64,000 bases of DNA from an uncultured Candidatus Peribacteria bacterium (GCA_964648045.1 CAZYNU010000002.1:6782-70781); one strand, 5' to 3'; shown: positions 2,978 through 28,036, counted from the first letter of the stretch. Numbers and translations are program-made. Notes: generated from the letters alone by a model not told the origin.

Positions 2978-5533
2978 TCACTTCGCAACGCTGATCAATG
3001 TTCCCGGGTAGTAGTAGCCCAGGATCTGCTCGGCGGTCTTGCCCTCGTTGGCCTGGCCCTCGGCGCCGCAGCCGCTCATGCCCACGCCGTGGCCGCGGAG
3101 CGTCATACCGGCGCACCAGGGATCGTCTTTGGACGAGAACACTTCGGCGTGCGGAAAATTTGACCAACCAACCTCAGCGGGAGCGCGCGTGCGACCGTCG
3201 TTACTGGAGAAGTACGGCGCCTTAATGATGGACCCGTCGACCGTGAGTACTTCGTTCGCCGTGGAATTCACGGCTTTGACCCAGCGCGGGTGGTTTTCCT
3301 CGAATGTGACGCCAGCATAGGCCTGGAATTCGGCCGGGCTGTCGCTGCCGTCGTAGGGCATGCCGGGGAACTTCCGATTGTCGGGACTGAGGTAGAAAGC
3401 GGCGTAGGTGCGGGCGGCAATGGCAAAGGCACGCTGTTTCTCATACGGCTCAGTATCGGGCTGTTCGCTGACGCCGCGCATATAGTCTTCAAACGGCAAC
3501 TCATTGATGACGACCAACGTATTATCGACGACACGGCATTCGATCACGCCGCGGTACTTGCGGTTGCCAATATCGGTTGTCTTCCCCGTGCCTGGCGCCA
3601 AACGCACCACAGCCGCCGACGCGACCGTCTGCTGCCCCTGCATGACGGTGCAGGCGCCGTTATCGCGCGCGAGCAGCAGCGAGGCCGTGGACGATACCGA
3701 GGACGAGCCGACTGTCGTGCCCGAGGGCACGGTAACGGCCGCAGTATCGCCACCACTCACGCCCGTCAGTCGAACGCGAATGGACGCGCTCGGCAGCGTG
3801 ACGTTCGATGATGTTGCAGAAGACGAAGCACGCGATGACGCACTGCGCGAAGAGGAGGAACGTGATGAACTGACGCTGGATGACGAGCGCGGGCGAGACG
3901 AAGAAGAGGACGTTCGAATAGACGAGGATGATGAACGGCTGCGAACAGACGATGATGATGCCGGCACGCGGCCGGGTGGCAGCGGCATGCGGCGACCTTC
4001 AGTGAGAAGCGTGAGCGTGAGGTCGCCGATCGTCAGTCGCGTCGTACCGGTTTCGGCCGGGAACTGAATCTCGAATGTGACGGGAATACTCTGGCCCGCC
4101 AAGACGCGCTCGGGCAGAAGGGCTTTGCGGCTTAGTCGCTGGCGGTCGTCGCCCTTGGCCAACCATAAGCCAATGCCGTTGTCGGTACGCGACACATCAC
4201 CGACCGAAGTGCCGGCCTGGAGCGTTTTTTCGGCGCCATAGGTGAGCGTCACGAGCGCGCGCATACCCGGGCGACCCGTCAGCGTCGTAGACGCATACGT
4301 GTAAAATCCAGTCTTGGCACGACTGGCAGACGACGCCGAAGCAGAGGACGTCTCAGCCGGCAGGCCTCGATTGCGCAGACGCTCCTGACGGCGCTGTTCC
4401 GCCTGGTCGACATGCGGCTTGTTCGACACATCCGGCCAAGCCGGGAACGTGACAGCCTTGTCGGTCTGCCCACTCTTCACATTCGCGCGCACTTGATCGA
4501 GCACGCCGTACATGGAGAAGCCAGGGCAATCCGTCGCGAGCAAATCACGATGGCCAACCACCGTCGGCATGCTCTCGCCGTGGTACGTCACCGATTCGGA
4601 CAGATCGACGTCGTAGGTATCGGCCAGTAAGACCAACAGCTTTTGCAATGCCTTCACCTGGGCCTGCGTGGGACGCTCCTCATCGAAGTTTCCCATGAGC
4701 GAAATGCCGACAGTGCCCACGTTGTGGCAATAGACGTGGCCGCCCACCACCAATTTGCCTCCAGCCCTCCCCTCGTACACCTGGCCCGTCTCGTCGACGA
4801 TGTAGTGGTAGCCAACGTCGCCCCAGCCTCGATTGACGGCGTGGAACTGATACAAGGCGCGCATGCGTTCGATACCGGTGCGACCGTCGCCGCTTACGAG
4901 ACCGGCTGTGTGATGCACCACGAAGAGTTTGACCTTCGGCGAATACTGCCACGGCCAACGCAGCGTGTCGCCATCGGCATTCGTACGGGTAGTGGAGGAG
5001 ATCTTAAACTCGTTAGGGTAATTGGTCTGGTCGGCCAAACAATCTTTCTCACGCTGCGAGCCGCCGCCGTTATCGCCCACGTCCGACACGGAATCGGCGG
5101 CGGGAGCCGTGCTTGGACGAGCCGCGGTGGTAGCCAGCGATTCGTCTGCCGCCCATTGGGCACGGGTCAGGATGAACGGTGACGAGACGTTATTGAGGGC
5201 AGCCAATCGAATGGTCGGCGGCGCGGAGGAGAGAACGATGGGATGCACGACCGGCGCCGCTCCCGCAATACGCCACTCCACGCGCGTCACTCCGCGTGGG
5301 AACATGACCAAATTACTCTCCACCAGAGTTGGATCTTGCTCGTTCTCGATCGCCAAGTCGCTCCAGATACCCCGAGAGCCATCGGGCAGCACAGGACGAA
5401 CGGCAACGGCGCGAGTATCCGGTTGAAAAGCGACGGACACAGCGTCGATACCGGCCGGGAAATCTTGGACGGTTTGATGGGGGATGGCGGCGGAGAGAAG
5501 CGCGACCGCGGCGCAGGTGAGGCACGTCAGCAT
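2978..5533 (-). CDS. secreted peptidoglycan hydrolase fusion: N-acetylmuramoyl-L-alanine amidase (Amidase_2/PGRP-like) + poly-Ser linker + SpoIID/LytB domain
   Basis: Signal peptide MLTCLTCAAVALLSAAIP. Amidase motifs VVHHTAG and GWGDVGYHYIVDETGQVYEGRAGG. SpoIID-like region YRGVIECR...LVVINELPFEDYMRGVSE...AIAARTYA...APYFSSNDGRT. The start is the ATG at 5533; a TTG at 5539 is an alternative. Confidence 0.8.
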   Translation of the reverse strand: MLTCLTCAAVALLSAAIPHQTVQDFPAGIDAVSVAFQPDTRAVAVRPVLPDGSRGIWSDLAIENEQDPTLVESNLVMFPRGVTRVEWRIAGAAPVVHPIVLSSAPPTIRLAALNNVSSPFILTRAQWAADESLATTAARPSTAPAADSVSDVGDNGGGSQREKDCLADQTNYPNEFKISSTTRTNADGDTLRWPWQYSPKVKLFVVHHTAGLVSGDGRTGIERMRALYQFHAVNRGWGDVGYHYIVDETGQVYEGRAGGKLVVGGHVYCHNVGTVGISLMGNFDEERPTQAQVKALQKLLVLLADTYDVDLSESVTYHGESMPTVVGHRDLLATDCPGFSMYGVLDQVRANVKSGQTDKAVTFPAWPDVSNKPHVDQAEQRRQERLRNRGLPAETSSASASSASRAKTGFYTYASTTLTGRPGMRALVTLTYGAEKTLQAGTSVGDVSRTDNGIGLWLAKGDDRQRLSRKALLPERVLAGQSIPVTFEIQFPAETGTTRLTIGDLTLTLLTEGRRMPLPPGRVPASSSSVRSRSSSSSIRTSSSSSRPRSSSSVSSSRSSSSRSASSRASSSATSSNVTLPSASIRVRLTGVSGGDTAAVTVPSGTTVGSSSVSSTASLLLARDNGACTVMQGQQTVASAAVVRLAPGTGKTTDIGNRKYRGVIECRVVDNTLVVINELPFEDYMRGVSEQPDTEPYEKQRAFAIAARTYAAFYLSPDNRKFPGMPYDGSDSPAEFQAYAGVTFEENHPRWVKAVNSTANEVLTVDGSIIKAPYFSSNDGRTRAPAEVGWSNFPHAEVFSSKDDPWCAGMTLRGHGVGMSGCGAEGQANEGKTAEQILGYYYPGTLISVAK
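3805..3965 (-). repeat. coding low-complexity tract (Ser/Arg-rich linker) inside the amidase-SpoIID gene; approximate bounds
   Basis: Translates as SSSSVRSRSSSSSIRTSSSSSRPRSSSSVSSSRSSSSRSASSRASSSATSS. On the plus strand it appears as GA[TCG]-rich triplets. Confidence 0.7.
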
Positions 5534-5670
5534 GGGCAAGGTCGGAGTCTAGCAGCCGAAACCCCGAACCAAGAGAAAAAAACCCGGATCGTCGTATGGA
5601 CCAGAACGCGGGTACCAAGCGCGTCAACAGGCTACGATCCGGGCTTCGGTGATAATGTAATGCAAAATAC

Positions 5671-8539: not shown

Positions 8540-8917
8540 TCAGGCACGCTCCGCCTGCCACTCTGTGAGTAGATCGGCCAAACGGGTCTCGGCGCCGGGC
8601 AGGCTGCTACACACTACCGCGTCGGCACCGGCAGACCGGGCTTCGTTGGCATTGGCGTGATTATCCGCTGAACTCACGAGCGCGATCTTCGCGTGTGGAA
8701 ACGCGGTGCGCACCGCCCGAATCACAACGGGGCCGTTGAGCGCCGGAATGTAGTAGTCGACAAAAGCGGCGGCGAGGTCGGGCAGTTTAGGCAGTAATGC
8801 TATCGCCTCAGCAGTGGTCACCGCCTCGTGCACCTCGCCCCTCCAAGATTCTGTCGCCACAGCACGAAGCATGGCGCGCTTCTCCGACGAGTCATCGACA
8901 ATCAGAAGTGCCGGCAC
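8540..8917 (-). CDS. stand-alone CheY-like receiver (REC) domain protein
   Basis: VPALLIVDDSSEKRAML...AAFVDYYIPALNGPVVIRAVR...KIALVSS. The GTG start at 8917 is supported by TACGAT (8924-8929, minus strand) 6 nt upstream. The longer track ORF to 9124 would overlap the divergent gene. Confidence 0.5.
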   Translation of the reverse strand: MPALLIVDDSSEKRAMLRAVATESWRGEVHEAVTTAEAIALLPKLPDLAAAFVDYYIPALNGPVVIRAVRTAFPHAKIALVSSADNHANANEARSAGADAVVCSSLPGAETRLADLLTEWQAERA

Positions 8918-8994
8918 GCGCCGATCGTACCAGAACAGAGAATGGCAGCGCGCGCGATTCCGACCAGCGACCAACCTGCTTACACTCAAACGGC

Positions 8995-10308
8995 GTGCCC
9001 TCCCTCGCACCCGCCCAAGACCGCGATTCTGCCGCTGATCCACGCTGGTGGTCGGCGCGTTGGTTGATGGTCGCCGCAGTGATCGTGGGCGTACTTCTTC
9101 GCTTGGCCTACGTAGCGACGACACCGTTCAACTTGCGCAATTACGACGTGGGCGGACACCTGCAGTATTTGAGCTACATGAGTACGGAGTGGCGTGTGCC
9201 CGAGGCGACGCTGGGCTGGGAAATGCACCAACCTCCGCTCTATTACGCCGCCGCTGCAGTTTGGACAATGCTGCAACCAGGCTCTGATTGGATGCGCGAA
9301 TTGCAAGGATTGGCATTCATTTGCTCGTTGGCCACCTTGCTCATCGGCGCTTGGATTGGCACGGAGCTCTTTCCGCGTCGGCACCAGGCCTGGCTGACCG
9401 GACTCTTCACGCTCGGTCTCGCCGTATTCCCCGGGCTTATCCTGCTGTCGTCGCGCGTGAATAACGACGTGCTCTACGCCCCACTGTGTTTCGCGGCCTT
9501 CGGCCTGTTGCTTTGGTGGTGGCGGGCGCCCAAGCGCCGCCGCTGGGTGGCCCTCTGCCTCGTTCTCACCGCCGCGCTGCTCACCAAATCGAACGGACTC
9601 CTACTCATTGGTGCGACTGCCCTCTGCCTGGTGGCGAATCGACGAGTGACGCTGCAGGAATGCCTGAAGCAACTGTTCGTAGGCATGGCCATCATCGGCA
9701 TTGGCGCCGGCTGGTACCACGCACTGCGGCATGAGCAGCGCTTTGGCGTACAGTTCTTTGTCGAGTCCAGTGCCAACACGTCTCCCCTCAGTCGCGGCCT
9801 GTTCGTGGGTAATCAACTGAGTGACTACGTCACCCTGCCTCTCGTTCAAACCATCGAACAGCCGTACGTCAGTCCATGGAAAGACACCACTTTCCGGCGA
9901 AACTTTTGGTCGTACGCCTATCGCTCGGCCTACTTGGGCGAGTTTCACTTTGGCGATACGTTGCGAGGCCTCTCGCGGGGCATTCTTCTTTCTGGCTATG
10001 GAGTGATGGTGCTCTCGACGGTGGGCCTGGCGTTCTTATTGCACAAGCGGGAGAGCGCGCTCTTTCCTTTGGCAGCCGTGCTGTGTCTGCAGTTTGCCGG
10101 TTTGATGGGCTATCGCCTGCTGAATCCCTTCGCTTGTAACCAGGATTTCCGCTTTATCGTGGTGGCAACTGCCCCGCTGCTCGGGCTGGCCATCGTTGGC
10201 CTGGAGCAGTTGCCGAGCACGGCCCGCAAACCAGCGTTGGCCGTCTACTTGCTGCATGCGACCCTCTGCGCGGCACTCATTGCTGGCATCGTGGCGCTCG
10301 GCATCTAA
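8995..10308 (+). CDS. GT-C fold glycosyltransferase, family 39 / PMT_2 (ArnT-like) polytopic membrane protein
   Basis: YDVGGHLQYLSYM and WEMHQPPLYY motifs near the N-terminus, with more than 10 hydrophobic segments. The start is uncertain. GTG 8995 has TACACT (8981-8986) 8 nt upstream; ATG 9067 is the alternative. Confidence 0.65.
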   Translation: MPSLAPAQDRDSAADPRWWSARWLMVAAVIVGVLLRLAYVATTPFNLRNYDVGGHLQYLSYMSTEWRVPEATLGWEMHQPPLYYAAAAVWTMLQPGSDWMRELQGLAFICSLATLLIGAWIGTELFPRRHQAWLTGLFTLGLAVFPGLILLSSRVNNDVLYAPLCFAAFGLLLWWWRAPKRRRWVALCLVLTAALLTKSNGLLLIGATALCLVANRRVTLQECLKQLFVGMAIIGIGAGWYHALRHEQRFGVQFFVESSANTSPLSRGLFVGNQLSDYVTLPLVQTIEQPYVSPWKDTTFRRNFWSYAYRSAYLGEFHFGDTLRGLSRGILLSGYGVMVLSTVGLAFLLHKRESALFPLAAVLCLQFAGLMGYRLLNPFACNQDFRFIVVATAPLLGLAIVGLEQLPSTARKPALAVYLLHATLCAALIAGIVALGI

Positions 10309-17149: not shown

Positions 17150-17743
17150 GTGCCTATTCAGAAAACTGGAACTCTCAAAGAAGAGGTCCGTCGCCTGCTG
17201 CCCAACCCCGCCAGCCTGAAGCCGGAACGCCTACGTGCCATCGTGCGGACCTACGGCCTGTTCGCTGACAAATTCGTGCCCTGGCTCACCATCGTTCACG
17301 ATGCGCAGCCGCCGGGCGCGGGCCGCGACGTCTGCCGCGACAACCTGATCTGTGAGATCGAAGAAGATCACCCCCGATTACTGCGGCAGTTCCTGGCCCA
17401 GATCGAAGCCGGTGAACGCAACGGTACCCGCCTTGGGTCAAACATCGATTGCTGCCAGCCCTGGATCATGGCGATCGACGCGCACTGCCGGCAGCCGATT
17501 CCTGGCTTGGCCGTGATCGCCGGACTGGAACATGCCTCACTCGCGTTCATCCCCTGGCTTAAAGAAGTCGCTCGGATGCTGAAACTCGGCGAGATCCGTT
17601 ATCTGGAGATTCACGGCGAGGCGGACATCGCCCACGCCCGCGAGCTGGAGGAAGCGCTCACAAGGTCTGGCGGCGGAGACGAGGTATTTCTGGCTTTCAG
17701 CCTGGTCCATGCCCTGCTCCGCGACATTTTCACCGGCGTGTGA
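17150..17743 (+). CDS. small heme-oxygenase-like fold protein (iron-containing redox enzyme / PqqC-TenA-like family)
   Basis: NLICEIEEDHPRLLRQFL, GLEHASLAFIPW and EIHGEADIAHARELE resemble the helix-borne E/D/H ligand motifs of this family. GTG start with GGAGA 8 nt upstream. Confidence 0.45.
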   Translation: MPIQKTGTLKEEVRRLLPNPASLKPERLRAIVRTYGLFADKFVPWLTIVHDAQPPGAGRDVCRDNLICEIEEDHPRLLRQFLAQIEAGERNGTRLGSNIDCCQPWIMAIDAHCRQPIPGLAVIAGLEHASLAFIPWLKEVARMLKLGEIRYLEIHGEADIAHARELEEALTRSGGGDEVFLAFSLVHALLRDIFTGV

Positions 17744-17758
17744 TGCACGCGCCTCCAC

Positions 17759-17789
17759 CCCCGGTCGGCCTACCGACCGGGGATTTTTT
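17759..17789 (+). terminator. intrinsic terminator after the 17150-17743 gene
   Basis: CCCCGGTCGG-CCTA-CCGACCGGGG followed by ATTTTTTA. Confidence 0.85.
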
Positions 17790-17835: not shown

Positions 17836-18720
17836 TCAGAAGGGGAGATCCTCCACCTTCACTTCGCTCTTGTTGTAATCGATGTCGGGAATGCCGGCAG
17901 CGCCGATGCCCACGGCTGCCGTAGCCTCGGGGGCAGAGCGACGGCCTGGAGCCTCCTCGCCGAAGGGACTGCCACCAGAGGCGACGTCGGCACGCACGGC
18001 GTCGAGAGCGGTTTGGTTTTTGATGCCCAACAGCGAGACTGTGTCGGCTACGATTTCGGTGGCGTAGCGCTTCTGACCGGCCTGTGTCTCGAAGCTGCGG
18101 GTCTGCACACGGCCGGACACAAAGACCTTACTGCCCTTCTTCAAGGTGCGCTGGCACTCGTCGGCCAGGTCGCCCCACACCACGACGTTATGAAACTCAG
18201 AACGTTCCTGAGCCACGCCGGCCTTGTCCTTCCAGCGATCGTTGGTGGCCAGACCGAGCGACAGCACCTTTTGGCCGCTGGTGGTAGTGCGAAGCTCCGG
18301 ATCACGCGTCACGTTGCCGAGAAGATCGGCACGATTGAGGCAGCTGGTGAGCTGACGGGCGTTCTCGGGCGACGGCATGGCACCGTCTTTGGGATCAAGC
18401 AAGATGAGATCGAGAGCGACCATTTTCGTTTTACTGCGCTTCTCCTTGGTTTTTTCGTCTTCCCAGCTATCAGTCTGCAAGCGACCAGAAATGAAGAGCT
18501 GCGAGCCAGCCTTCACGAACTGGCCGGCGACATTGGCCATAGGGCCCCACACCGTGACGGTATGGAAACTCTTACCTTCCATCATCTGTCCGGACTCGGA
18601 TTTGAAGGAATACGGCACGACCAGATTTAGGTCTGTGACCGTGGTGCCGCCCGGCGTCGTACGGACGTCGACAGGCTGCGTCTGGTAACCGATAATGTTT
18701 ACGCGATTAAGGGAAAACAT
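17836..18720 (-). CDS. ssb: single-stranded DNA-binding protein with two tandem OB folds and an acidic C-terminal tip
   Basis: First OB: MFSLNRVNIIGYQTQPVDVRTTPGG...HTVTVWGPMANVAGQFVKAGSQLFISGRLQTDSWED. Second OB: NRADLLGNVTRDPELRTTTSGQKV...HNVVVWGDLADECQRTLKKGSKVFVSGRVQTRSFE. The tail ends ...EVKVEDLPF. The start is the ATG at 18720. Confidence 0.85.
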   Translation of the reverse strand: MFSLNRVNIIGYQTQPVDVRTTPGGTTVTDLNLVVPYSFKSESGQMMEGKSFHTVTVWGPMANVAGQFVKAGSQLFISGRLQTDSWEDEKTKEKRSKTKMVALDLILLDPKDGAMPSPENARQLTSCLNRADLLGNVTRDPELRTTTSGQKVLSLGLATNDRWKDKAGVAQERSEFHNVVVWGDLADECQRTLKKGSKVFVSGRVQTRSFETQAGQKRYATEIVADTVSLLGIKNQTALDAVRADVASGGSPFGEEAPGRRSAPEATAAVGIGAAGIPDIDYNKSEVKVEDLPF

Positions 18721-18945: not shown

Positions 18946-21900
18946 ATGCGTTCCCTCCCCGCCCCCTCCCGGCCGCTCGTGCCAGTCCTGGCCACAGGCT
19001 TGGCCTTGGCGCTGGCTTCGGCGACGGCCTTGGCCAGCGAACCCTTGCTGCTCGATACAGCCGAACCGACGAACCTCGAGGAATTGCGAAGTCGAACCGA
19101 CGAGGTCCTAGGCGCCTCCGCGGCCGGCCAGTGCGGTGGCATCGTGGGTGATAGCGTGGGGTTCAATGTAGGCGAGGGTATTGCGATGGTCCTCGGCTTT
19201 CCTGGTCGCGCGGGGGAGCCGCTGGCAGCACCGCGCAGCGGCTTGGCGCTTAAAAACAGCATCGGCGGGCAGCTGGACGACGGCTTTGAATTTCCCGAAG
19301 GGGCCGTGGGTCTGTCGACACGCTGCGAGCCGGACAAGGATTCGCTGCTCAAAATCGTCACATCGCCCTACGAATTGACGCGCGGCATTTTGGAAATTGT
19401 CTCGGCGCCAAGCTTTGGCGATCCGCCCTGCCTGACCACCACCGGCGACTGCAACAACTTCTGTGATGCCCTCAACGGCTTCTCGTATCCCGACTGCGCG
19501 GTGATGAACGGCGACTTCAAGCGCGGTATCGGCTGTGCGGTCTGGTGCATGAAGCAAACGTGCACCGACGGGTGGACCGGCCAGTGCAACACGTCGCTGA
19601 GCGCGCTGACCGGCGGCGCCCTGCCGGACTCACCGCAGCCGGCCATGCTCTCGCTGTACAAGGGTGGCCTCGTGTTTGAGAAAGACGGACAGTTCGTCTG
19701 GTACGACTCGCTTGAGCCGGTCTTCAACGATGACGGCCAACCGCTTACGTTCGGCGAGACACAGGAATACATCGAACCGATCGACACCACGCTGCCTGCG
19801 CCGGACTTCCCAAACTGCGTTCCCTGCGCGGGAGAGGAATGTCGCTGCGGCCTGCAACCAGTACCCGAGGAATCGAAAGATCCGGTGTGCCTCCTGCAAG
19901 TGCCCGACGTGGACGTGGGCAAACCCAATCTCTCCAACTTGCCGCCTGACGACGCGGCGCTCTGGCAGGGCTGCCGCACAGCGTCACTCCGTCGGCTGAA
20001 GGAGCAAGGTGACACAATCGACCTCAACCAACTGGTGGGCATGGGTGAATGCATGGCGTCGATTGGCGCACCTGAAGCGAATCCGGTAGGCGGGGTCTAC
20101 GCCTCGTTCGCGCGGCAATACCAGGCCTTGGCCGAACGCTTCGCCTACACCGACGTGGCACCGCTCGACCGCAATTCCGCCGAGCCGATGGCCGTGTGCT
20201 ACGGCTTCTACAACGAATTCGACCCGCTTGAGCGACAGACGAAGATGGTCCCGCTCGAGTCTCCCGAAGACGCCCGCGACGCCCGCTGCGTGATCGGACT
20301 CGATTCCGATGAGTTTCCCCAAACGCAACTTGGGATGGGCTCGCTGCCAGAGGCCGACCCTGAAGACTTCTTCACCACCTTCGCGCGAGACGCGGGCCTC
20401 TCGCCCTGGTTCCAGGGATTGGCGGGCGCCTTCTCGCTGCTGCACTTGCCCGGACAAGACGGCCGCGACGCCCTGCCGCAAGCTGTGCTCGAACTGCCGG
20501 AAACCGACCGCGCGGGCTTACGCTCATTGCCCACACTACACCGCGCAACCATGGTCGATTTCGACGAAAGCGGCGACCGCCGCATCGTGACGACATGGTG
20601 GGCCAGCCTGGCCCAGGTGATGGCCGAAGCGTTGAGCGAACCGCGCATCACGATCCTCCTGCCAAAAATCCCCGATCTGGCACCTGCCAACGACGACCCA
20701 CTGTTCGATGAGGGCATTCCCGCCCACGAGCCAGCCACCGATCCGACCGCGCCCTTCGAAGTACAACTCGGCGTGGGCGAAGATCTGGTGGGACGAGTGG
20801 CCGAGTTCCTACAGCGCGATGCCGTGCTGCGCGTGGAGCAAGAGGCCGTACCCACGCTCATACCCGAAGGCGAACCCGAAGATTGGCGCGCGCTGGCCCA
20901 AGGATGGTGCACGTATCTAACACGGCAGGAGATTGGCGCCCAAGGCTGCGACCTGCCGACACTGCAAGGCAGCTTCCCGGAGGCGGCCGTGTTCTTTGAA
21001 CGATTGGAGGAATACGCCTCGCGCATCGAGGAAGCAGCCAGCTTGCGGGCCGAATTGACCAAGACCCTGACGGCATTACTGGAAGCCCGCAGCGCCAGCC
21101 TGGAGGCGATCGAACGCTGGAAAGAAGACGCAATCACATTGCTCGCTGCGCCCGAAGATCAAAAGGAACGACTGGAAGCGCTGCGCGAACGCTGGAACGA
21201 GGTGAGCCGTCTCTATGCCAACGTGGGCGCCGTGACGAACATGCCCTGGTGCATGAACCAGCGCTTCACGCTGCCCATCACCTCTCTGCTCGATCCTTGG
21301 CTTCCGAGTCGCGAAGGCAGTGGCGGACTCATTTCCGGAGCCGGTCTGCCCCTGCCATTCTTCCAAACGCGTGCCCCGGACCTGGAGTTGGATCTGTCGC
21401 TACTGCACCTGCAAGAAGGCAGCGTCTCAGTGCCGGTGCTCAAGCCGCTGCAAGTCCGCTTCGACTTGGTTCGCCTGGCCCCACCGGGCAGCGCCGACGA
21501 ACAGACGACCGAACCGCCGATTCTCCCGGCCTTTCCCGACTTAGCGCCCATCAAAGACGCACTCGCCACCGCCCGCCAAGCATTGGCCGATGTGCAGGTG
21601 CTCAGCGAGCCGCCACTGCCAGAAGTGCCGGAAGAATTTCTGCCAGTGGAGCGCGAGGCCGAGCTGGCGGCCGCCCTCGACGAGGCCGAGCAGATCGTGC
21701 AAGGGATGGACGAGGCTTACCGCCGCTTCTGGGCGCCCTTCCTGCCCGAGAACCGTGAGGCTCGCTTGAACCTGGAGTGCGAAGGTTGGGGATTGGGCGC
21801 CTGCCGACACACCGAAATGGAATTGATCGAACAACTCACCCGCGCCATGTCGCGGCCGGGCGTCTTCCAACCGGAGGATCTAGCCCCCATGACGCCCCTG

Positions 21901-22197
21901 GGTCGGACAGTCTCGCCCGTCTGTACATTGAGCGACGGCTCATGTCTGCCGCTTCCACCCACCGTGCGTCCGCCGGCTGCCGGGTGGCAGATTGCCGCCC
22001 CGTCGGATGACGACGCCGATCTGGATCAAGTGCGACGCGACGTGCGCAAGACGCTTCTGCCCACCAGGATTGATCCGCCCGAAGCGCGCACCCTACAGTC
22101 GATTCCGTGGAGCGCGAACGGACCAGACTTATTGCCTGGCCTGGCCGTGCCGACCTCGATTCCACTCACACCGCCCGCTCCCGACACCGACCTGTGA
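18946..22197 (+). CDS. secreted Cys-rich acidic protein A (1083 aa), no recognised domain
   Basis: Signal peptide ...LALALASATALA|SEP with no later TM segment. About 26 Cys by manual count, in clusters such as CAVWCMKQTCTDGWTGQC and CVPCAGEECRC. It contains a coiled-coil-like stretch. Codons end mostly in G/C. Confidence 0.75.
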   Translation: MRSLPAPSRPLVPVLATGLALALASATALASEPLLLDTAEPTNLEELRSRTDEVLGASAAGQCGGIVGDSVGFNVGEGIAMVLGFPGRAGEPLAAPRSGLALKNSIGGQLDDGFEFPEGAVGLSTRCEPDKDSLLKIVTSPYELTRGILEIVSAPSFGDPPCLTTTGDCNNFCDALNGFSYPDCAVMNGDFKRGIGCAVWCMKQTCTDGWTGQCNTSLSALTGGALPDSPQPAMLSLYKGGLVFEKDGQFVWYDSLEPVFNDDGQPLTFGETQEYIEPIDTTLPAPDFPNCVPCAGEECRCGLQPVPEESKDPVCLLQVPDVDVGKPNLSNLPPDDAALWQGCRTASLRRLKEQGDTIDLNQLVGMGECMASIGAPEANPVGGVYASFARQYQALAERFAYTDVAPLDRNSAEPMAVCYGFYNEFDPLERQTKMVPLESPEDARDARCVIGLDSDEFPQTQLGMGSLPEADPEDFFTTFARDAGLSPWFQGLAGAFSLLHLPGQDGRDALPQAVLELPETDRAGLRSLPTLHRATMVDFDESGDRRIVTTWWASLAQVMAEALSEPRITILLPKIPDLAPANDDPLFDEGIPAHEPATDPTAPFEVQLGVGEDLVGRVAEFLQRDAVLRVEQEAVPTLIPEGEPEDWRALAQGWCTYLTRQEIGAQGCDLPTLQGSFPEAAVFFERLEEYASRIEEAASLRAELTKTLTALLEARSASLEAIERWKEDAITLLAAPEDQKERLEALRERWNEVSRLYANVGAVTNMPWCMNQRFTLPITSLLDPWLPSREGSGGLISGAGLPLPFFQTRAPDLELDLSLLHLQEGSVSVPVLKPLQVRFDLVRLAPPGSADEQTTEPPILPAFPDLAPIKDALATARQALADVQVLSEPPLPEVPEEFLPVEREAELAAALDEAEQIVQGMDEAYRRFWAPFLPENREARLNLECEGWGLGACRHTEMELIEQLTRAMSRPGVFQPEDLAPMTPLGRTVSPVCTLSDGSCLPLPPTVRPPAAGWQIAAPSDDDADLDQVRRDVRKTLLPTRIDPPEARTLQSIPWSANGPDLLPGLAVPTSIPLTPPAPDTDL

Positions 22198-23033
22198 CGA
22201 CCACCCTCCGCCTCCATCGGCTCCTGGCCACGCTCGTCATCAGCCTAACGCTGCAACCAGCGTTGGCGGCGGCTCAAGGCACCACATCGCCGCCGGACGA
22301 ACTACGCAGCTGCGTGCAATTGTCATTCAAACAACTCGCCCGCCAACAGCGTCTCTACCGAACGGTTATCTTGGGACGGGGTCCAGCGGCAGCAGCTCCT
22401 CAGGGGGCAGTGTGGTATGACAACGACACGGGCGATGCCTGGTTGAAGGAAAATGAGAACGAGTGGCGATCCATTCCGTCGGCGACCGCGCGAAGCGACG
22501 GTCAAATGGAAGCGAACGCCGAGGCCGACCCAGTCTGGGATTCCATCTTCCGCCGAGGCATCGTCGAAACACGCACCACCCTTACCTCATCGCTCATCCC
22601 CTCGCTCACGCAGGCGTTTCGCGCCCTGCAATGCCGCCTGGAAACCGTCTGCGGCCTGGCGACGAACCAGCTCGTGGGAGACGGCGAAGGCGGCGAAGAA
22701 TTGAGCGTCGATGGCTGCCTGCCTCCGTCGGAATTGGGGCTCACTGCCATGCCGGCCTGCCGATTCACGGAGGTATCCGCGGGACGCGATGCTTTGGAGG
22801 CCCTAACCACCTGCCGCGATTCGGCGGCAGCGATCGTGACACACGAAGCCGAAGCCCTGCGCCTGCTGGTGGCCTACGACGCGGCAGCACGAACATCGTT
22901 GCAGTACTCCGGCGTGCTCGACCGGTTGGTCCGCGATATCCGCCAGCCGCTCATCTGGCCGCTCATCGAACTTTCCGATCTGGCGCGCGAACTTGCGCGG
23001 ATCCCTTGCTTCCTCGGTATTTGTGCGCCCTGA
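22194..23033 (+). CDS. secreted Cys-containing protein B (279 aa), no recognised domain
   Basis: GTG start overlapping the upstream stop (GTGA at 22194-22197). Signal peptide TTTLRLHRLLATLVISLTLQPALAAAQG. About 8 Cys. Confidence 0.6.
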   Translation: MTTTLRLHRLLATLVISLTLQPALAAAQGTTSPPDELRSCVQLSFKQLARQQRLYRTVILGRGPAAAAPQGAVWYDNDTGDAWLKENENEWRSIPSATARSDGQMEANAEADPVWDSIFRRGIVETRTTLTSSLIPSLTQAFRALQCRLETVCGLATNQLVGDGEGGEELSVDGCLPPSELGLTAMPACRFTEVSAGRDALEALTTCRDSAAAIVTHEAEALRLLVAYDAAARTSLQYSGVLDRLVRDIRQPLIWPLIELSDLARELARIPCFLGICAP

Positions 23034-23058
23034 ACGAACGTCGCCGCCGGCCGTGACG

Positions 23059-23823
23059 ATGACGCTCTGCCTCTTGGCAGCGGCCAGCCTGGCAGGCTGC
23101 TCGCTGCGCAGCGACACCATCGATTCCAGCGTGGTCCGCGGGCAACAACTGTCACCCTGCACCGCCGAAGGCACAACTTTCGCGGATCTAGCGTTGAAAG
23201 ACTGGGCTCCCACCTATCATCGCCGCGTCGCCGAAGTGGTGGACGAATTCTTCACGCAAGAAAGTGACGACATGGCAATCGACTGCACCACGCTGGACGA
23301 GGGCGACGGCAGTCCGCCCGCACCCGCCGGATCGGCACTATTGGCACTGGCGCTCGACCTGCCGCCTTGGGCCGACGGCAAGCGGCCGGTGACGCGCTTG
23401 GCCACTGGTGACGTGCTACGTACCTACTTAGATACGTACCTCTGCAGCCTGACTGAGGCTCGCCTCACCATCGTCCTGACGGCCACTGGCGAGAGTGGAT
23501 CGGGGTCTGGCGTCGCCTCGGAGCCACGCATTGGCGAAGGGGTGGAAGTGGACCGCGGCAACCTCTCGGAATGGATCGAAACAGATAGCGCGATGATCGA
23601 TCGGGAACTGGCCACTGCCGAACCCACGCTGGAACGCGTGCTCACGTTGATGTCGGCCGATCATCGCACTGCCGGATTGAAAACCGAACTCCAGTGTCTC
23701 CTTCGCGCCTCGACCGATCTTCGCAACGCGTTGGCTCTGTTCTCGGAAGCAGCAGCCTGCGTTGGCAGGCTTTGGGACGCTCAGGGCATCGTTCGAGATT
23801 TCCCCGCTTTCGGCGGCCAATGA
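23059..23823 (+). CDS. lipoprotein C (254 aa), no recognised domain
   Basis: MTLCLLAAASLAGCS lipobox. The in-frame GTG at 23053 is an alternative start. Confidence 0.65.
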   Translation: MTLCLLAAASLAGCSLRSDTIDSSVVRGQQLSPCTAEGTTFADLALKDWAPTYHRRVAEVVDEFFTQESDDMAIDCTTLDEGDGSPPAPAGSALLALALDLPPWADGKRPVTRLATGDVLRTYLDTYLCSLTEARLTIVLTATGESGSGSGVASEPRIGEGVEVDRGNLSEWIETDSAMIDRELATAEPTLERVLTLMSADHRTAGLKTELQCLLRASTDLRNALALFSEAAACVGRLWDAQGIVRDFPAFGGQ

Positions 23824-26285
23824 CCACCTTTCCGCTCGCCACCGGCATCGTTCTCTCCACGCTATTGGCAGCCGTTCCGGCGGCGGCGCAAGTTTCCGTG
23901 TATGAAAGCGCGCGCGCCGACGTGTTGCAAGAATCGGCGTACTTCGAAGTGGGACCAGAAGTGGCAACCTTCGCGCGGGCGGTACTGGCCGCCAAGGGGA
24001 AGACGCTCTCGGCCGCACAAGTGGAGCGCTCACTCAGGCTGCCGCCGAGCGCCGTGTGCAACAACAGACCATTAGCGACCGACGACGAGAGCGAGGCGGA
24101 CAGTGCCAATGACGACGAAGACCGATCGGAATGCCTGGAGACGATCGAGCGCTTGCAACACATTCTGCGGCGGGAGTCGGCGGTGCAAGCCTTGGGCCGC
24201 GACCTACAGGCCATCGCGGCGAGCGCCGAATTGGCCACCGACTCATACCCGGGCATGGGCAGCGAGACGCTGCTCGTCACCGAAGCCATCCGCACTATTT
24301 GGGGTCATCCCACCAGCGGCAGCCGCGCCACGCTCTCGGTTCGAGCCTGGCCCGAGGACGTGGACTTCTCGGCCATCAACGGCGCACTCGGCGCGCTTAA
24401 CCGTGAAGAGCGCACGGGCGCGGTGTGGCGCGCACTCTACGGAACCCGCTTTGCACGGGGAGAGCGTGGACGCCTGAACGACGCCGATACACCGGACAAT
24501 CCGCAGAACGGTCCGGGGACCGAACGGCAGTATCTCTTCAAAGAGCAGCCGGCTCTCGACGAAGCATTGTTGGGGCTGCGGTCGACACTATTGGGCGACG
24601 ATCTAGACGACGCAGCAGAGCAAGAAAACCAACCCGGACGGATCATTGCACTCTATCCGCCGAAGAGCCTGGGTAATAACGTCGTGGTCTGGGTCTCCAG
24701 CGACGATGTAGGTTTGCGTCAACAAACCCCGATCCAGCCCGTCTTACCCTCACTCGGCACAGACGGATCGGCCATTGCTGGCGGCACCTGGCCGCCTGCG
24801 CCGCCAGGCCCGTCGCGGCCGCCCGTCTCGCCTTCGCCGACGGATGATAGCGCCGGACTCTGCCTGGACCCGGTCGCCGCGGACGGATTCCTCTGCCGCG
24901 CGCTCGCGGACGATCTCTCACCCTGCCAAGAAGACGCGCCGAACGTGGCCGAGAGCATCGCCCTGGCAGCGTGCACGGACATCGACCAAGAAACGAAGGC
25001 GACCGTCGCCGGTCCACAGCTCTGTTCGGAGTTCGACTGGCAGGCCGATGGCTTTAATCCCGACGAGCAATGCACGCCGCAGCTGGAGTGCGCCGACACC
25101 TGCACAGACGAGAGTGGCGAGTTCAACGACGAGACGCAGTTTCACGTCTATATGAAAGAAGATAAAGACGGGCTGCCAGCCGTGGCACGGGCGTGCGTGA
25201 AAGAAGGCGGAGATCTCCTGCCGGCCTATCGCCTGTTGCAGGCGGCCAGCGGCATTCGCCTAACCTGCGAACAAGAGAATGGCGTCGATGTGGGCACCAA
25301 CCTGCCACCCGAAGAACTGGGCTTCGCCTGCTGCTCGCAATTGGAGCAACAAGCGACGGTGATGTGTCGCGCCATGGAAGAGGATGGCGTCTTTGCGGAG
25401 GACGATGGCTCGCGCGCCATCTCGACGGGCGGCGAAGCCTTTGGCGTCGGCAGTTGCGCACTGGCGTTCGCCGTGGAGTACTGCGGACCGCAGTGCGGCG
25501 GACCGCAGCCGGAAGGATTCTTGGAAGAACTCATCGACCGAGCCAACACGAACCCGGCAGGCTTGCCCGAACGCTGCGAGGATGCCCGCGATGAAGCGCG
25601 TGTGCAGGCCCTCATCGCCGAAGCCGAAGTCATTGACGAAGCCTGCTCTCCCGAGCGCGAGACCAGCATGCCCAACACCATTCTGGCCAATGCCTGCTAC
25701 GCCGGCAGCTGCCTGGAACGATCACTCAAACTGCACAATCTGGTACCCGGCTTTGGCGCTCTGACGGCCATGGACCAGACCATGCCCCAAACCCCAGAAA
25801 TGGCGGAGCGCGATGGACAGAGAAATGTGGACGTGTCGCCACTGCGCACGCCGAGGCTGCCCACCTACGAACCGGCGCGCGTGATGGGCGACTTCGACGC
25901 CGCCTTCTGCCAACTCAACGGCCTACCGCCGCAGACGCCGCCCACCGTCTGCGCGGTCGACCCCCTCCGACGCGTCTCCCTGCCGTTAGCCGAAGGTTTC
26001 AACCAGCAGGCGAACCTGGACCAACAGCGCGCCGAGCTGACGGCCGCTCAGCAGGCGTTCATACGCACCGGCCTCCCGACCGGTACGCGCCTTGGTGACC
26101 GCATCTTTTTAGAAGCCCTGCAAGCCCCAGTGGAGGGATTAGCCGAATCGGTCGAGACGAGCATCGTCCTCTTACAAGATTTGGCGGCCGTCGACTTCAC
26201 GCCGGAACTGTGCCCGCTCTCCCCAAGCCAACCGCTCGTCGGCTCCGGCCGAACAGAGACCAGCTCTCGCTCAACGCCACTGTGA
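23820..26285 (+). CDS. secreted Cys-rich acidic protein D (821 aa), no recognised domain
   Basis: ATGA start/stop overlap at 23820-23823. Signal peptide MTTFPLATGIVLSTLLAAVPAAAQ. About 25 Cys, e.g. CTPQLECADTC and EYCGPQCGG. Confidence 0.7.
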   Translation: MTTFPLATGIVLSTLLAAVPAAAQVSVYESARADVLQESAYFEVGPEVATFARAVLAAKGKTLSAAQVERSLRLPPSAVCNNRPLATDDESEADSANDDEDRSECLETIERLQHILRRESAVQALGRDLQAIAASAELATDSYPGMGSETLLVTEAIRTIWGHPTSGSRATLSVRAWPEDVDFSAINGALGALNREERTGAVWRALYGTRFARGERGRLNDADTPDNPQNGPGTERQYLFKEQPALDEALLGLRSTLLGDDLDDAAEQENQPGRIIALYPPKSLGNNVVVWVSSDDVGLRQQTPIQPVLPSLGTDGSAIAGGTWPPAPPGPSRPPVSPSPTDDSAGLCLDPVAADGFLCRALADDLSPCQEDAPNVAESIALAACTDIDQETKATVAGPQLCSEFDWQADGFNPDEQCTPQLECADTCTDESGEFNDETQFHVYMKEDKDGLPAVARACVKEGGDLLPAYRLLQAASGIRLTCEQENGVDVGTNLPPEELGFACCSQLEQQATVMCRAMEEDGVFAEDDGSRAISTGGEAFGVGSCALAFAVEYCGPQCGGPQPEGFLEELIDRANTNPAGLPERCEDARDEARVQALIAEAEVIDEACSPERETSMPNTILANACYAGSCLERSLKLHNLVPGFGALTAMDQTMPQTPEMAERDGQRNVDVSPLRTPRLPTYEPARVMGDFDAAFCQLNGLPPQTPPTVCAVDPLRRVSLPLAEGFNQQANLDQQRAELTAAQQAFIRTGLPTGTRLGDRIFLEALQAPVEGLAESVETSIVLLQDLAAVDFTPELCPLSPSQPLVGSGRTETSSRSTPL

Positions 26286-27943
26286 TGCCTCGCCGCTTCG
26301 TCCTCATCGGCCCCGCTCTACTGGCACTGCTCCTAGCCACGTCGGCACATGCCCAGCAATCGCCCCTGTGCGACCAACTGCAAGACGCCCCCGCCCTGTC
26401 GCCCTACGTGCAGCAAGTCTTAGAACGCGCCGACCGCGGGCTAAATTACATCGCCGAGAGCGGAGCCGGCACGGGCGATCCGTCCCTCTATTGGCGGGTA
26501 CTTGTGGAAAACGCTGGCGCGGCTGTGATCTCGGGCATGGATACATCGCGGCGTATCACAGTCGCCATGCAAGACCTCACCAGTCGTTCGGCCTGCCTGC
26601 GCTACGACGCCATCTTACTCTCGTGCAAGATCGAGCAAGTACGGACACGACTCAACGAGCAGCTCAGCCTGGCCGTCTCGCCCTCGCCTAACACGGCCAC
26701 CGTCTTCCAACTGCAAGAACTACTGATCTTTCTCTTCGACCGCGATCGACACCTGGCGGCGGGTGCCACCGACCCCTGGTATGCCGACCCCGACTGGGGA
26801 CGCGTCTTTGCCTTCGACCCACCTGCACCCGGCTTTTGCTGCCGCACGGGTGATGACGGTCTGTCGTGTGAATCCCTCGACGAAGCCGAGTGTAACCCGG
26901 GCACCTTCTGGAGCACCGAAGCCGATTGCGAGCAGGCCTGCGGCGTCACGTCGTTCCCCGGCGAAGATCCCCGCGTCTGCCCGTACCATTCCGATTACGG
27001 CTACCCGACAGAAGGCGGTTACGGCTGCGACGAAACCATCATGCCCGACGCGGCGATCGTGGCCGACGAAAAAACAGCACTCACGGAGTTGCGTGCAGCC
27101 GTGGAGCGCCTGCGCCAAGAAGCCGGTGCCGACCCCGCGCCCGATCGCGCGCCCGCACTGATTGGCTGTGCGTCGGAATTCGGCCATTGCAACGATAATG
27201 GGGCGCAGACCTGCCGTACCGACAGCGACTGCGACGACGTCGCCTGCGTGTATCAGCGCGGCACCTGCCTGAACGACCCATCCGTCTCGTGCACACTCGA
27301 CGCCGACTGCACTGTGGACGACGGCGAATTGGCGGCGGTCTGCCTGCTTCCGCCCGTGTCGCCACCGGCCGCCGTCATCCGGCGCGGTCCGTTCAATCTG
27401 CAACCCGACGACCTGCGTCTCACTCGTGCCTTCATGAATTGGAGCATTCGGGTGGGTGCCAGTCGCCCGTTCGGCTCGGCGGGAGCAGAGCCCCGCGATC
27501 AAGCTGGCGGCGACCAGGTCTACGTGGACCCCATCGATTTCATCTTGAATCAGAACAATCGCTCCTACTTCCGCCAGGCAGCGGCCAATTTTGCGACCGG
27601 TCAGGCGCGTTTTGCCCCACTCACCGAAACGTCGAACGCTCTGCAACGCATGCTCATGCCGCTGCGTGAAGCGGTAGCGGAATTGAGCACCTTAGCCTCG
27701 GCCAAGGAGGGCATACGTCGGTTCGTGCGTCGATTCGCGGACCTCCTCCACCACAGCTGCGCCACCGACCCCTGCCAGACCGATCTGGAACGCATCTGGA
27801 GCATGGCCAATACCGACGAGTGCTTTGCCTACGCCGACGGCACCTACTTGGAGGACGATTGCGCCAACGGCGAGTCGCGGGCGCAAAAGTGTGCCGATGC
27901 GGCGGGCGTGGCCATCAACGTGCCGGCCTGCGAGACGCCGTAA
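26285..27943 (+). CDS. secreted Cys-rich protein E (552 aa), no recognised domain
   Basis: The start overlaps the upstream stop (TGATG at 26283-26287). Signal peptide MPRRFVLIGPALLALLLATSAHA. About 26 Cys, e.g. CRTDSDCDDVACVYQRGTCLNDPSVSCTLDADC. Confidence 0.7.
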   Translation: MPRRFVLIGPALLALLLATSAHAQQSPLCDQLQDAPALSPYVQQVLERADRGLNYIAESGAGTGDPSLYWRVLVENAGAAVISGMDTSRRITVAMQDLTSRSACLRYDAILLSCKIEQVRTRLNEQLSLAVSPSPNTATVFQLQELLIFLFDRDRHLAAGATDPWYADPDWGRVFAFDPPAPGFCCRTGDDGLSCESLDEAECNPGTFWSTEADCEQACGVTSFPGEDPRVCPYHSDYGYPTEGGYGCDETIMPDAAIVADEKTALTELRAAVERLRQEAGADPAPDRAPALIGCASEFGHCNDNGAQTCRTDSDCDDVACVYQRGTCLNDPSVSCTLDADCTVDDGELAAVCLLPPVSPPAAVIRRGPFNLQPDDLRLTRAFMNWSIRVGASRPFGSAGAEPRDQAGGDQVYVDPIDFILNQNNRSYFRQAAANFATGQARFAPLTETSNALQRMLMPLREAVAELSTLASAKEGIRRFVRRFADLLHHSCATDPCQTDLERIWSMANTDECFAYADGTYLEDDCANGESRAQKCADAAGVAINVPACETP

Positions 27944-28036
27944 GAGGCCGATCTTCTCGCCCAAAAACGCGGCAACCAGTATGATGCATGCATCCGGCTC
28001 CGTCCCGCTTCGAGGACGGGCTACGCCAGGACCCCC

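Follow-up and report, generated by a model that had tools for sequence, protein, structure and literature searches.

A conserved operon of five predicted exported, cysteine-rich proteins located between ssb and dnaE in Peribacteria

The stretch analysed here, hereafter the window, consists of 64,000 nucleotides (nt) of DNA from an uncultured Candidatus Peribacteria bacterium (GCA_964648045.1, CAZYNU010000002.1:6782-70781), and positions are counted from its first letter. Between ssb and dnaE it carries a cassette of five genes (A to E) that form one operon with overlapping frames and are probably translationally coupled. As judged from comparison of related sequences, the cassette is inherited vertically and belongs to the core genome of the Peregrinibacteria/Peribacteria lineage of the Candidate Phyla Radiation (CPR). 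The explanation that we favour, with about even confidence, is that its products would build a Sec-exported, disulfide-bonded, membrane-tethered complex of five subunits on the outer face of the membrane. The five genes are as follows.

18946-22197, plus strand: gene A, 1083 amino acids (aa), predicted signal peptide, 26 cysteines
22194-23033, plus strand: gene B, 279 aa, GTG start, predicted signal peptide, eight invariant cysteines
23023-23823, plus strand: gene C, 266 aa from the GTG at 23023 (254 aa if started at the ATG at 23059), predicted membrane anchor subunit
23820-26285, plus strand: gene D, 821 aa, predicted signal peptide, 25 cysteines
26285-27943, plus strand: gene E, 552 aa, predicted signal peptide, 26 cysteines

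The original prediction had placed five consecutive same-strand open reading frames here, and all of them were found where it put them. Three of the tight junctions that it described were read directly from the sequence, namely GTGA between A and B (the GTG of B at 22194 overlaps the TGA of A), ATGA between C and D (23820-23823) and TGATG between D and E (26283-26287). The gap of 25 nt that it reported ahead of C did not stand. This gap is probably an artefact of choosing the ATG at 23059, because an overlapping start is conserved in relatives: a start codon overlapping the end of B was present in 16 of 20 distinct loci, as a conserved GTG with an 11-nt overlap in every Peribacteraceae locus and as an ATG with an 8-nt overlap in most distant lineages. 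The GTG at 23023 also gives C a normal charged n-region (VRPERTSPPAV...) before its lipobox, whereas the start at 23059 does not. C most likely starts at the GTG at 23023, overlapping B by 11 nt, and not at the ATG at 23059, in which case all four junctions are overlaps. In the relatives the cassette genes are likewise joined by overlaps or by junctions of a few nt, and with stop/start overlaps kept across the lineage the view of one tightly coupled unit was upheld.

The 20 loci compared ranged from 82 % down to about 25 % identity and from 43 to 64 % G+C. When they were analysed with hmmsearch, the order A-B-C-D-E was observed in every locus long enough to show all five genes. Wherever the flanks were available, down to about 25 % identity, the cassette was located between a divergently oriented ssb and dnaE. 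Distant lineages keep murA-lspA-ftsW-murG-ppi-gltX-murB-ssb on one side and dnaE-tsaC on the other. In the complete genome of Ca. Peribacter riflensis, where the genes were matched by size and neighbours and not by sequence, the interval from ssb to dnaE holds _963 to _967 (1030, 279, 263, 821 and 521 aa), each of them annotated as hypothetical.

An exhaustive HMMER search with the profile of A returned 218 clusters (50 % identity) at E ≤ 1e-3 and 147 at E ≤ 1e-30, mostly of about 1000 aa with a signal-like N-terminus and 22-26 cysteines. A word-indexed search found nine clusters each for A and D, the named ones being Candidatus Peribacteraceae; even with a 50-sequence profile it found only nine close clusters, and it understated the size of the A family. 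One distant A-family member was labelled Candidatus Peregrinibacteria, and a scan of one genome per GTDB species matched four Peribacteria metagenome-assembled genomes. NCBI taxonomy places Peribacteraceae within the phylum Peregrinibacteriota. The cassette had been called lineage-specific, and all labelled members are indeed Peribacteria or Peregrinibacteria, but the clade is broad and old (218 clusters, G+C 43-64 %) and not narrow.

Against the closest relative, L010, the ratio of nonsynonymous to synonymous substitution rates (dN/dS) was 0.11-0.17 for all five genes and 0.10 for ssb. The five genes are considered real because of these ratios and because orthologues are kept down to about 25 % identity. 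The overall G+C of the cassette matches that of its neighbours, and the G+C content at third codon positions was 0.70-0.75 in the cassette and 0.72-0.83 in neighbouring genes, which, together with the same position between ssb and dnaE in all relatives examined, agrees with the earlier proposal that the block is native and not recently acquired. A mobile-element or recent-acquisition origin was rejected on composition and fixed synteny. Divergence runs in parallel across the five proteins and is about double that of the housekeeping proteins on either side: compared with L012 the cassette proteins were 53-64 % identical (neighbours 85-95 %), and in a second comparison 25-32 % identical (neighbours 48-63 %).

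All five proteins are acidic, as had been claimed (D+E 12-15 % versus K+R 7-9 %; isoelectric points 4.3-5.0). The cysteine totals of A to E are 26, 8, 7, 25 and 26, and the cysteine clusters quoted in the original prediction are present in the chains; one of the seven cysteines of C lies within its signal peptide and another is the lipobox cysteine. Each protein shows one Kyte-Doolittle peak of at least 1.5, at its N-terminus, and no later segment of transmembrane grade was found by hydropathy in any of the five, again as predicted. AXA-like cleavage sites were observed (ALA/SEP, AAA/QG, AAA/QV and AHA/QQ, the slash marking the cleavage position), and signal-like N-termini are kept in the orthologues although the sequence there diverges. 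The N-termini are of standard Sec type, and by this heuristic examination (n-region, h-region and small-x-small site) all five products carry predicted export signals.

The lipobox of C (LAGC/S) matches the pattern [LVI][ASTVI][GAS]C, and lspA was found in the conserved neighbourhood of relatives. A canonical lipobox was present in 11 of 15 aligned C orthologues, plus LGFC in one, and in L016, L026, L027, L029 and L030 a cysteine-free hydrophobic N-terminus takes its place. C is, on this evidence, the membrane anchor subunit and in the window a predicted lipoprotein; the anchoring that had been proposed for the third protein would be provided by the lipobox in most lineages and by an uncleaved hydrophobic N-terminus in five. 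Among the five proteins, only C has its own anchor. No LPXTG sorting signal and no hydrophobic tail were found at the C-termini of A to E (...PPAPDTDL, ...GICAP, ...PAFGGQ, ...RSTPL and ...PACETP), and no prepilin leader at their N-termini.

Poly-serine tails (SSSSS...) form the C-terminus of many orthologues of A, D and E (L001, L003, L007, L008, L011, L012 and L016) and are missing from A, D and E of the window. O-glycosylation of such tails is conceivable because a PMT_2-type (protein O-mannosyltransferase-like) gene adjoins ftsW in the window (8797-10308).

Nearly all cysteines are invariant in Peribacteraceae sequences, and a core set is retained in distant lineages. Across 135 A-family members, variable cysteines were gained and lost pairwise: C655 and C668 occurred together in 69 members, were missing together from 50 and disagreed in four (phi coefficient 0.93), and phi was 0.92 for C945/C953 and 0.89 for the long-range pair C63/C769. 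Counted from the first conserved cysteine, A has an even number in 112 of 117 full-length relatives, with totals from 16 to 54. B has eight mature cysteines and E an even count (10-26) in all loci but one each. The count in mature C is odd in 19 of 19 loci (five invariant cysteines, with 7 and 11 in two lineages), and that in mature D is odd in 14 of 15 loci, with totals from 15 to 37.

Conserved and paired cysteines of this kind are those expected of disulfide-bonded proteins, and the disulfide stabilisation proposed earlier is supported by both the paired losses and the parity of the counts. An intermolecular disulfide between C and D is predicted from the odd counts of these two and the even counts of the other three. 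Most simply read, the cysteines of A, B and E would all be oxidised within their own chains, with C and D each keeping one for an intermolecular bond, for which the most economical partner would be the other of the two. In C the candidate cysteine is C141, or else one of C46, C88, C225 and C246. Within D, the co-loss of C402 and C626 in one lineage suggests that these two pair; since this pair plus sequence-adjacent pairing leaves C798 (motif ELCPL), C798 is the candidate unpaired cysteine. CPR bacteria carry MdbA-like oxidoreductases and VKOR (PMC6744442). A VKOR gene is located 7 kb downstream of the cassette in relative L003, and none was found in the 64-kb window.

The structure of A was modelled with AlphaFold on an alignment of 50 sequences (predicted local distance difference test, pLDDT, 78.7; predicted template modelling score 0.68; 807 of 1083 residues at 70 or above), an alignment of nine sequences having given a pLDDT of only 40. 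In the model, residues from about 60 to 300 form a beta-rich, cysteine-rich region of very high confidence, the middle is a mixed region with disordered loops, and the C-terminal part is helical, with a helix of 87 residues (678-764) and another of 32 (901-932). The heptad-like helical stretch that had been noticed in A (residues about 679-752) coincides with the longer helix. Foldseek returned no match at E ≤ 0.001 for this model in PDB (best 2.7) or BFVD (best 1.5); as modelled, A is without a known fold within these two databases.

For the other subunits, architecture was compared among orthologues. B ends in a conserved motif (PCFLxxC). The N- and C-terminal parts of D are conserved and its central cysteine-rich module is variable; E likewise has conserved ends and variable central cysteine-rich inserts. 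Among the D orthologues of L015, L016 and L020, the central module is deleted in two lineages and has grown to 37 cysteines in another, and the conserved cores tolerate such modular insertion and deletion (L015 18271-19926; P0096; D orthologues). The residues conserved across the families are mostly cysteine, tryptophan, glycine, proline, leucine and tyrosine, and neither an invariant histidine nor a recognisable catalytic motif was found among the conserved residues of the five families. A structural or contact role is favoured over an enzymatic one because the conserved residues contain no catalytic-looking motif, and the cassette leans weakly towards a structural or binding role.

When the five proteins of the window were searched against Pfam, NCBIfam, PHROGs and PADLOC, no match above threshold was obtained, and the best family matches were far under the cut-off (e.g. 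EGF_LRP2, 14 bits against 30). When distant orthologues and family members of unusual length were scanned with Pfam, the only matches were a lineage-specific DUF4215 cysteine-repeat insert in the E orthologue of L015 (PF13948, E = 3.6e-7) and, below threshold, a collagen-like stretch in an orthologue of A. No significant match came from PDB profile searches with all five families, whether the alignments were shallow or diverse; the top one, for the A family, was 8ydl, a paramyxovirus F protein (E = 0.0075). This likeness to a fusion protein was rejected since Foldseek found no fold similarity, the E-value is above a safe threshold and the match lies in a helical/low-confidence region; A also has no internal hydrophobic segment of the kind found in class I viral fusion glycoproteins. 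Paralogy among A to E was rejected as well, as all hhalign probabilities between them were below 3 %. The original prediction had recognised no family, which agrees with these library and PDB profile searches for all five proteins and, as to fold, with the Foldseek result for A alone.

In the explanation that we favour, all five products would be exported by Sec and oxidised outside the cytoplasm, probably by an MdbA-like oxidoreductase/VKOR pair, until essentially every cysteine is in a disulfide. C would stay membrane-bound through lipidation or, in certain lineages, through its uncleaved N-terminal helix. The one cysteine in C and the one in D that would have no partner in the same chain would form a mutual disulfide, which would tie D covalently to the anchor, and A, B and E would join non-covalently. 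A would contribute a compact cysteine-knotted, beta-rich part and a helical part built around the 87-residue helix, about 130 Å long. The five subunits would together make up one complex on the membrane's outer face, and this complex may serve envelope architecture or contact with a partner cell. We infer the physical assembly, the C-D cross-link, the surface location and the role. A bolder form of this explanation, in which the cassette would be a new lineage-defining envelope apparatus with all-new folds, a C-D disulfide tether and a role in partner-cell contact or uptake for metabolically reduced bacteria, is possible but doubtful.

Several points weigh against the five-subunit complex. The signal-peptide calls are heuristic, being based on hydropathy, AXA-like sites and conservation. 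No intrinsic-terminator-like site was found in the 93 nt that separate E from dnaE (27944-28036), so the transcription unit may extend past E and dnaE is possibly co-transcribed. Synteny with cell-wall and replication genes may reflect low rearrangement in small genomes, and the composition of the conserved residues is weak evidence against catalysis. The odd cysteine counts could alternatively reflect a free thiol, a metal ligand or a homodimer disulfide. Locus L029 (14735-18217) departs from the usual parity, with 14 cysteines in D (even), 13 in E (odd) and 11 in C (odd). D there has one extra cysteine and the sum over the five proteins is still even; the pattern could represent a rewired inter-subunit disulfide between D and E or a sequence error. 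The extra cysteine of this D aligns with a position that has a C-terminal partner cysteine in L016 and L030.

We also analysed other explanations. It is somewhat unlikely, in our estimate, that the cassette encodes a machine for envelope biogenesis or cell division (acting, for example, as scaffold or regulator when peptidoglycan is made or hydrolysed) that replaces missing periplasmic components, instead of a surface or contact structure. Such a machine would fit the single cassette per locus examined and its fixed core position near murA-lspA-ftsW-murG-murB, both of which are unlike typical adhesins, as these are variable, repetitive and accessory. It would also fit the purifying selection on the cassette. 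Long extracytoplasmic coiled-coil proteins that regulate cell-wall hydrolases, such as EnvC and PcsB, are also known elsewhere in bacteria. However, no LytM, CHAP, amidase, PASTA, SPOR or other wall domain was found in the five proteins or in distant orthologues, and A had no Foldseek match in PDB to proteins of the EnvC or PcsB type. The evolutionary rate of the cassette is about double that of its neighbours, and where a genome is small and seldom rearranged, adjacency says little about function. A secreted multi-component toxin, pore-former or membrane-fusion-like device directed at a host or prey cell is very unlikely. The proteins are exported, A has very long helices, its family gave the marginal match to 8ydl (E = 0.0075) and CPR bacteria depend on hosts, but that match is above any safe threshold and falls in the helical/low-confidence region. 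A resembled neither fusion proteins nor ClyA, Hbl or YaxAB-type toxins when compared by Foldseek with PDB and BFVD, one subunit would be anchored on the producing cell, and no amphipathic or hydrophobic insertion segment was found beyond the signal peptides.

The five genes might instead encode co-expressed but independent secreted or surface proteins (adhesins or binding proteins) that form no stoichiometric complex, which we regard as rather improbable. Peribacteria are known for many large exported cysteine-rich proteins for which attachment has been proposed (PMC4736985), no homology among the five families was detected, and the variable cysteine-rich inserts of D and E resemble modular surface decoration. 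Independence is difficult to combine with a gene order and stop/start overlaps kept over very long divergence, with divergence that is co-ordinated across all five, or with odd cysteine counts in C and D that are complementary while those of A are even in 112 of 117 relatives and those of B and E in all loci but one each. Moreover, A, B, D and E would be lost from a single-membrane cell without a partner because they have no anchor of their own. The case for a complex over independent proteins is indirect and is drawn from gene order, overlaps, co-ordinated divergence, C as the sole anchor and the odd cysteines of C and D.

The region upstream of A was compared among the window and L001, L003, L007, L008 and L010-L012:

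18721-18945, plus strand: ssb/A intergenic region with conserved non-coding blocks; AAGAGAAGAG, purine-rich, stands directly 5' of the A start codon

Near-invariant blocks across the Peribacteraceae loci are an imperfect palindrome (GGTGTAC-N4-GGACACC), the series TGTCAACGACAAGG...GCTTTGGGNTGCGG...CGGCACAAT upstream of A, and a stretch of about 50 nt immediately 5' of the ssb start codon, rich in pyrimidines on the ssb strand. In distant lineages the blocks become indistinct. RNAalifold gave weak support for a structure (-9 kcal/mol, two covarying pairs), and no Rfam match was found in the region. With no Rfam match and weak covariation, an RNA element upstream of A was not upheld, and the region was kept as a promoter/leader candidate: the blocks are probably divergent promoters or operators together with the 5' leader of the operon. 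In many bacteria ssb is SOS-regulated.

The upstream flank of the cassette contains genes for an amidase/SpoIID protein and glycosyltransferases, ftsW, murG, gltX, murB and ssb, and the downstream flank contains dnaE, tsaC, nrdR, aspS, mfd and dnaN. Taking the window and relatives together, the cell-envelope genes around the block are lspA, ftsW, murG, murB and the amidase/SpoIID gene. The last of these (2978-5539, minus strand) encodes an 853-aa fusion of N-acetylmuramoyl-L-alanine amidase and SpoIID, a large cell-wall hydrolase amid envelope genes. The single-stranded DNA-binding protein (SSB) encoded next to the cassette (17836-18720, minus strand, 294 aa) combines two SSB/OB-fold stretches in a single chain, and this long form adjoins the cassette in all relatives. 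The same single-chain arrangement is known from the SSBs of Deinococcus-Thermus. The riflensis gene table contains two further short ssb genes elsewhere (124 and 133 aa). Between murB and ssb, the window carries a gene for a 197-aa protein of the Haem_oxygenas_2 family of iron-containing redox enzymes (17150-17743, plus strand), and the related loci examined have no gene of like size there. The gene in the window is followed by a terminator-like hairpin (17759-17782), strong and GC-rich, with a T-run.

Part of this picture is already known, as the genes are public as 'hypothetical' and the cysteine-richness of Peribacteria is published. The Ca. Peribacter riflensis paper (Anantharaman et al. 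2016, PeerJ; PMC4736985) describes Peribacteria as unusually cysteine-rich, with many large exported cysteine-rich proteins. A set of about twenty proteins averaging 1655 aa is singled out there, with a 14-gene cluster at about 7 % cysteine among them; some members vary between strains, and several weakly resemble Myxococcus cysteine-rich repeats or pappalysin. Cysteine-richness in itself is less surprising because that paper already reports the trait. The cassette proteins share with this set the lineage, export, cysteine-richness, lack of functional annotation and a proposed attachment or envelope role; they differ in their 2.4-4.7 % cysteine, in their fixed core locus and in showing no likeness to the Myxococcus repeats or pappalysin. 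The riflensis counterparts of the cassette were not found in the elevated-cysteine table, as far as the accessible parts of the paper go. The literature search found no other paper mentioning the cassette beyond this one. What appears to be new is that the five genes are recognised as one cassette, that this cassette is universal in the lineage and fixed in its locus, that it lacks a family or fold relative, and that its cysteine parity predicts a C-D disulfide.

Three known systems were compared. With the surface assemblies that depend on MdbA and VKOR (pili of Actinomyces and Corynebacterium), whose oxidoreductase families are enriched in CPR (PMC6744442), the cassette would share unfolded Sec export and oxidative folding outside a single membrane, as proposed here. 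In contrast to those pili, it has no sortase signal, no match to a pilin domain and, for A, no match to a pilin fold, and its tether would be a lipoprotein or transmembrane subunit and not the cell wall. Short acidic cysteine-rich modules such as CxxDxDC are shared with the DUF4215/Myxococcus cysteine-rich repeat proteins, but E of the window and ten other E orthologues have no match to DUF4215 and the conserved cores of A to E are unrelated to the repeat. The likeness to the 'Nap' complex of Mycoplasma (P1/P40/P90) is an analogy only, with no sequence or fold relationship to the cassette. Nap consists of large, co-encoded surface proteins with lineage-restricted folds that form a membrane-anchored hetero-complex for cell contact; its proteins are anchored by their own transmembrane helices and are not disulfide-rich.

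CPR bacteria, Peregrinibacteria included, are uncultured, and little is known of how they build their envelopes and contact other cells. Conserved operons of unknown function are numerous in CPR genomes. This one encodes, by prediction, exported proteins only, stands at one core locus in all relatives examined and has no relative in the family libraries searched nor, for A, in PDB or BFVD; together these features recommend it strongly as a candidate for envelope biology that defines the lineage. The five profiles can be used as a genomic marker for the clade, and the cysteine parity leads to a concrete prediction, an adduct between C and D. If the cassette served host contact, it would represent a new kind of episymbiosis organelle; if it were a scaffold for the wall or for division, it would illustrate how missing envelope machinery is made up for in reduced genomes.

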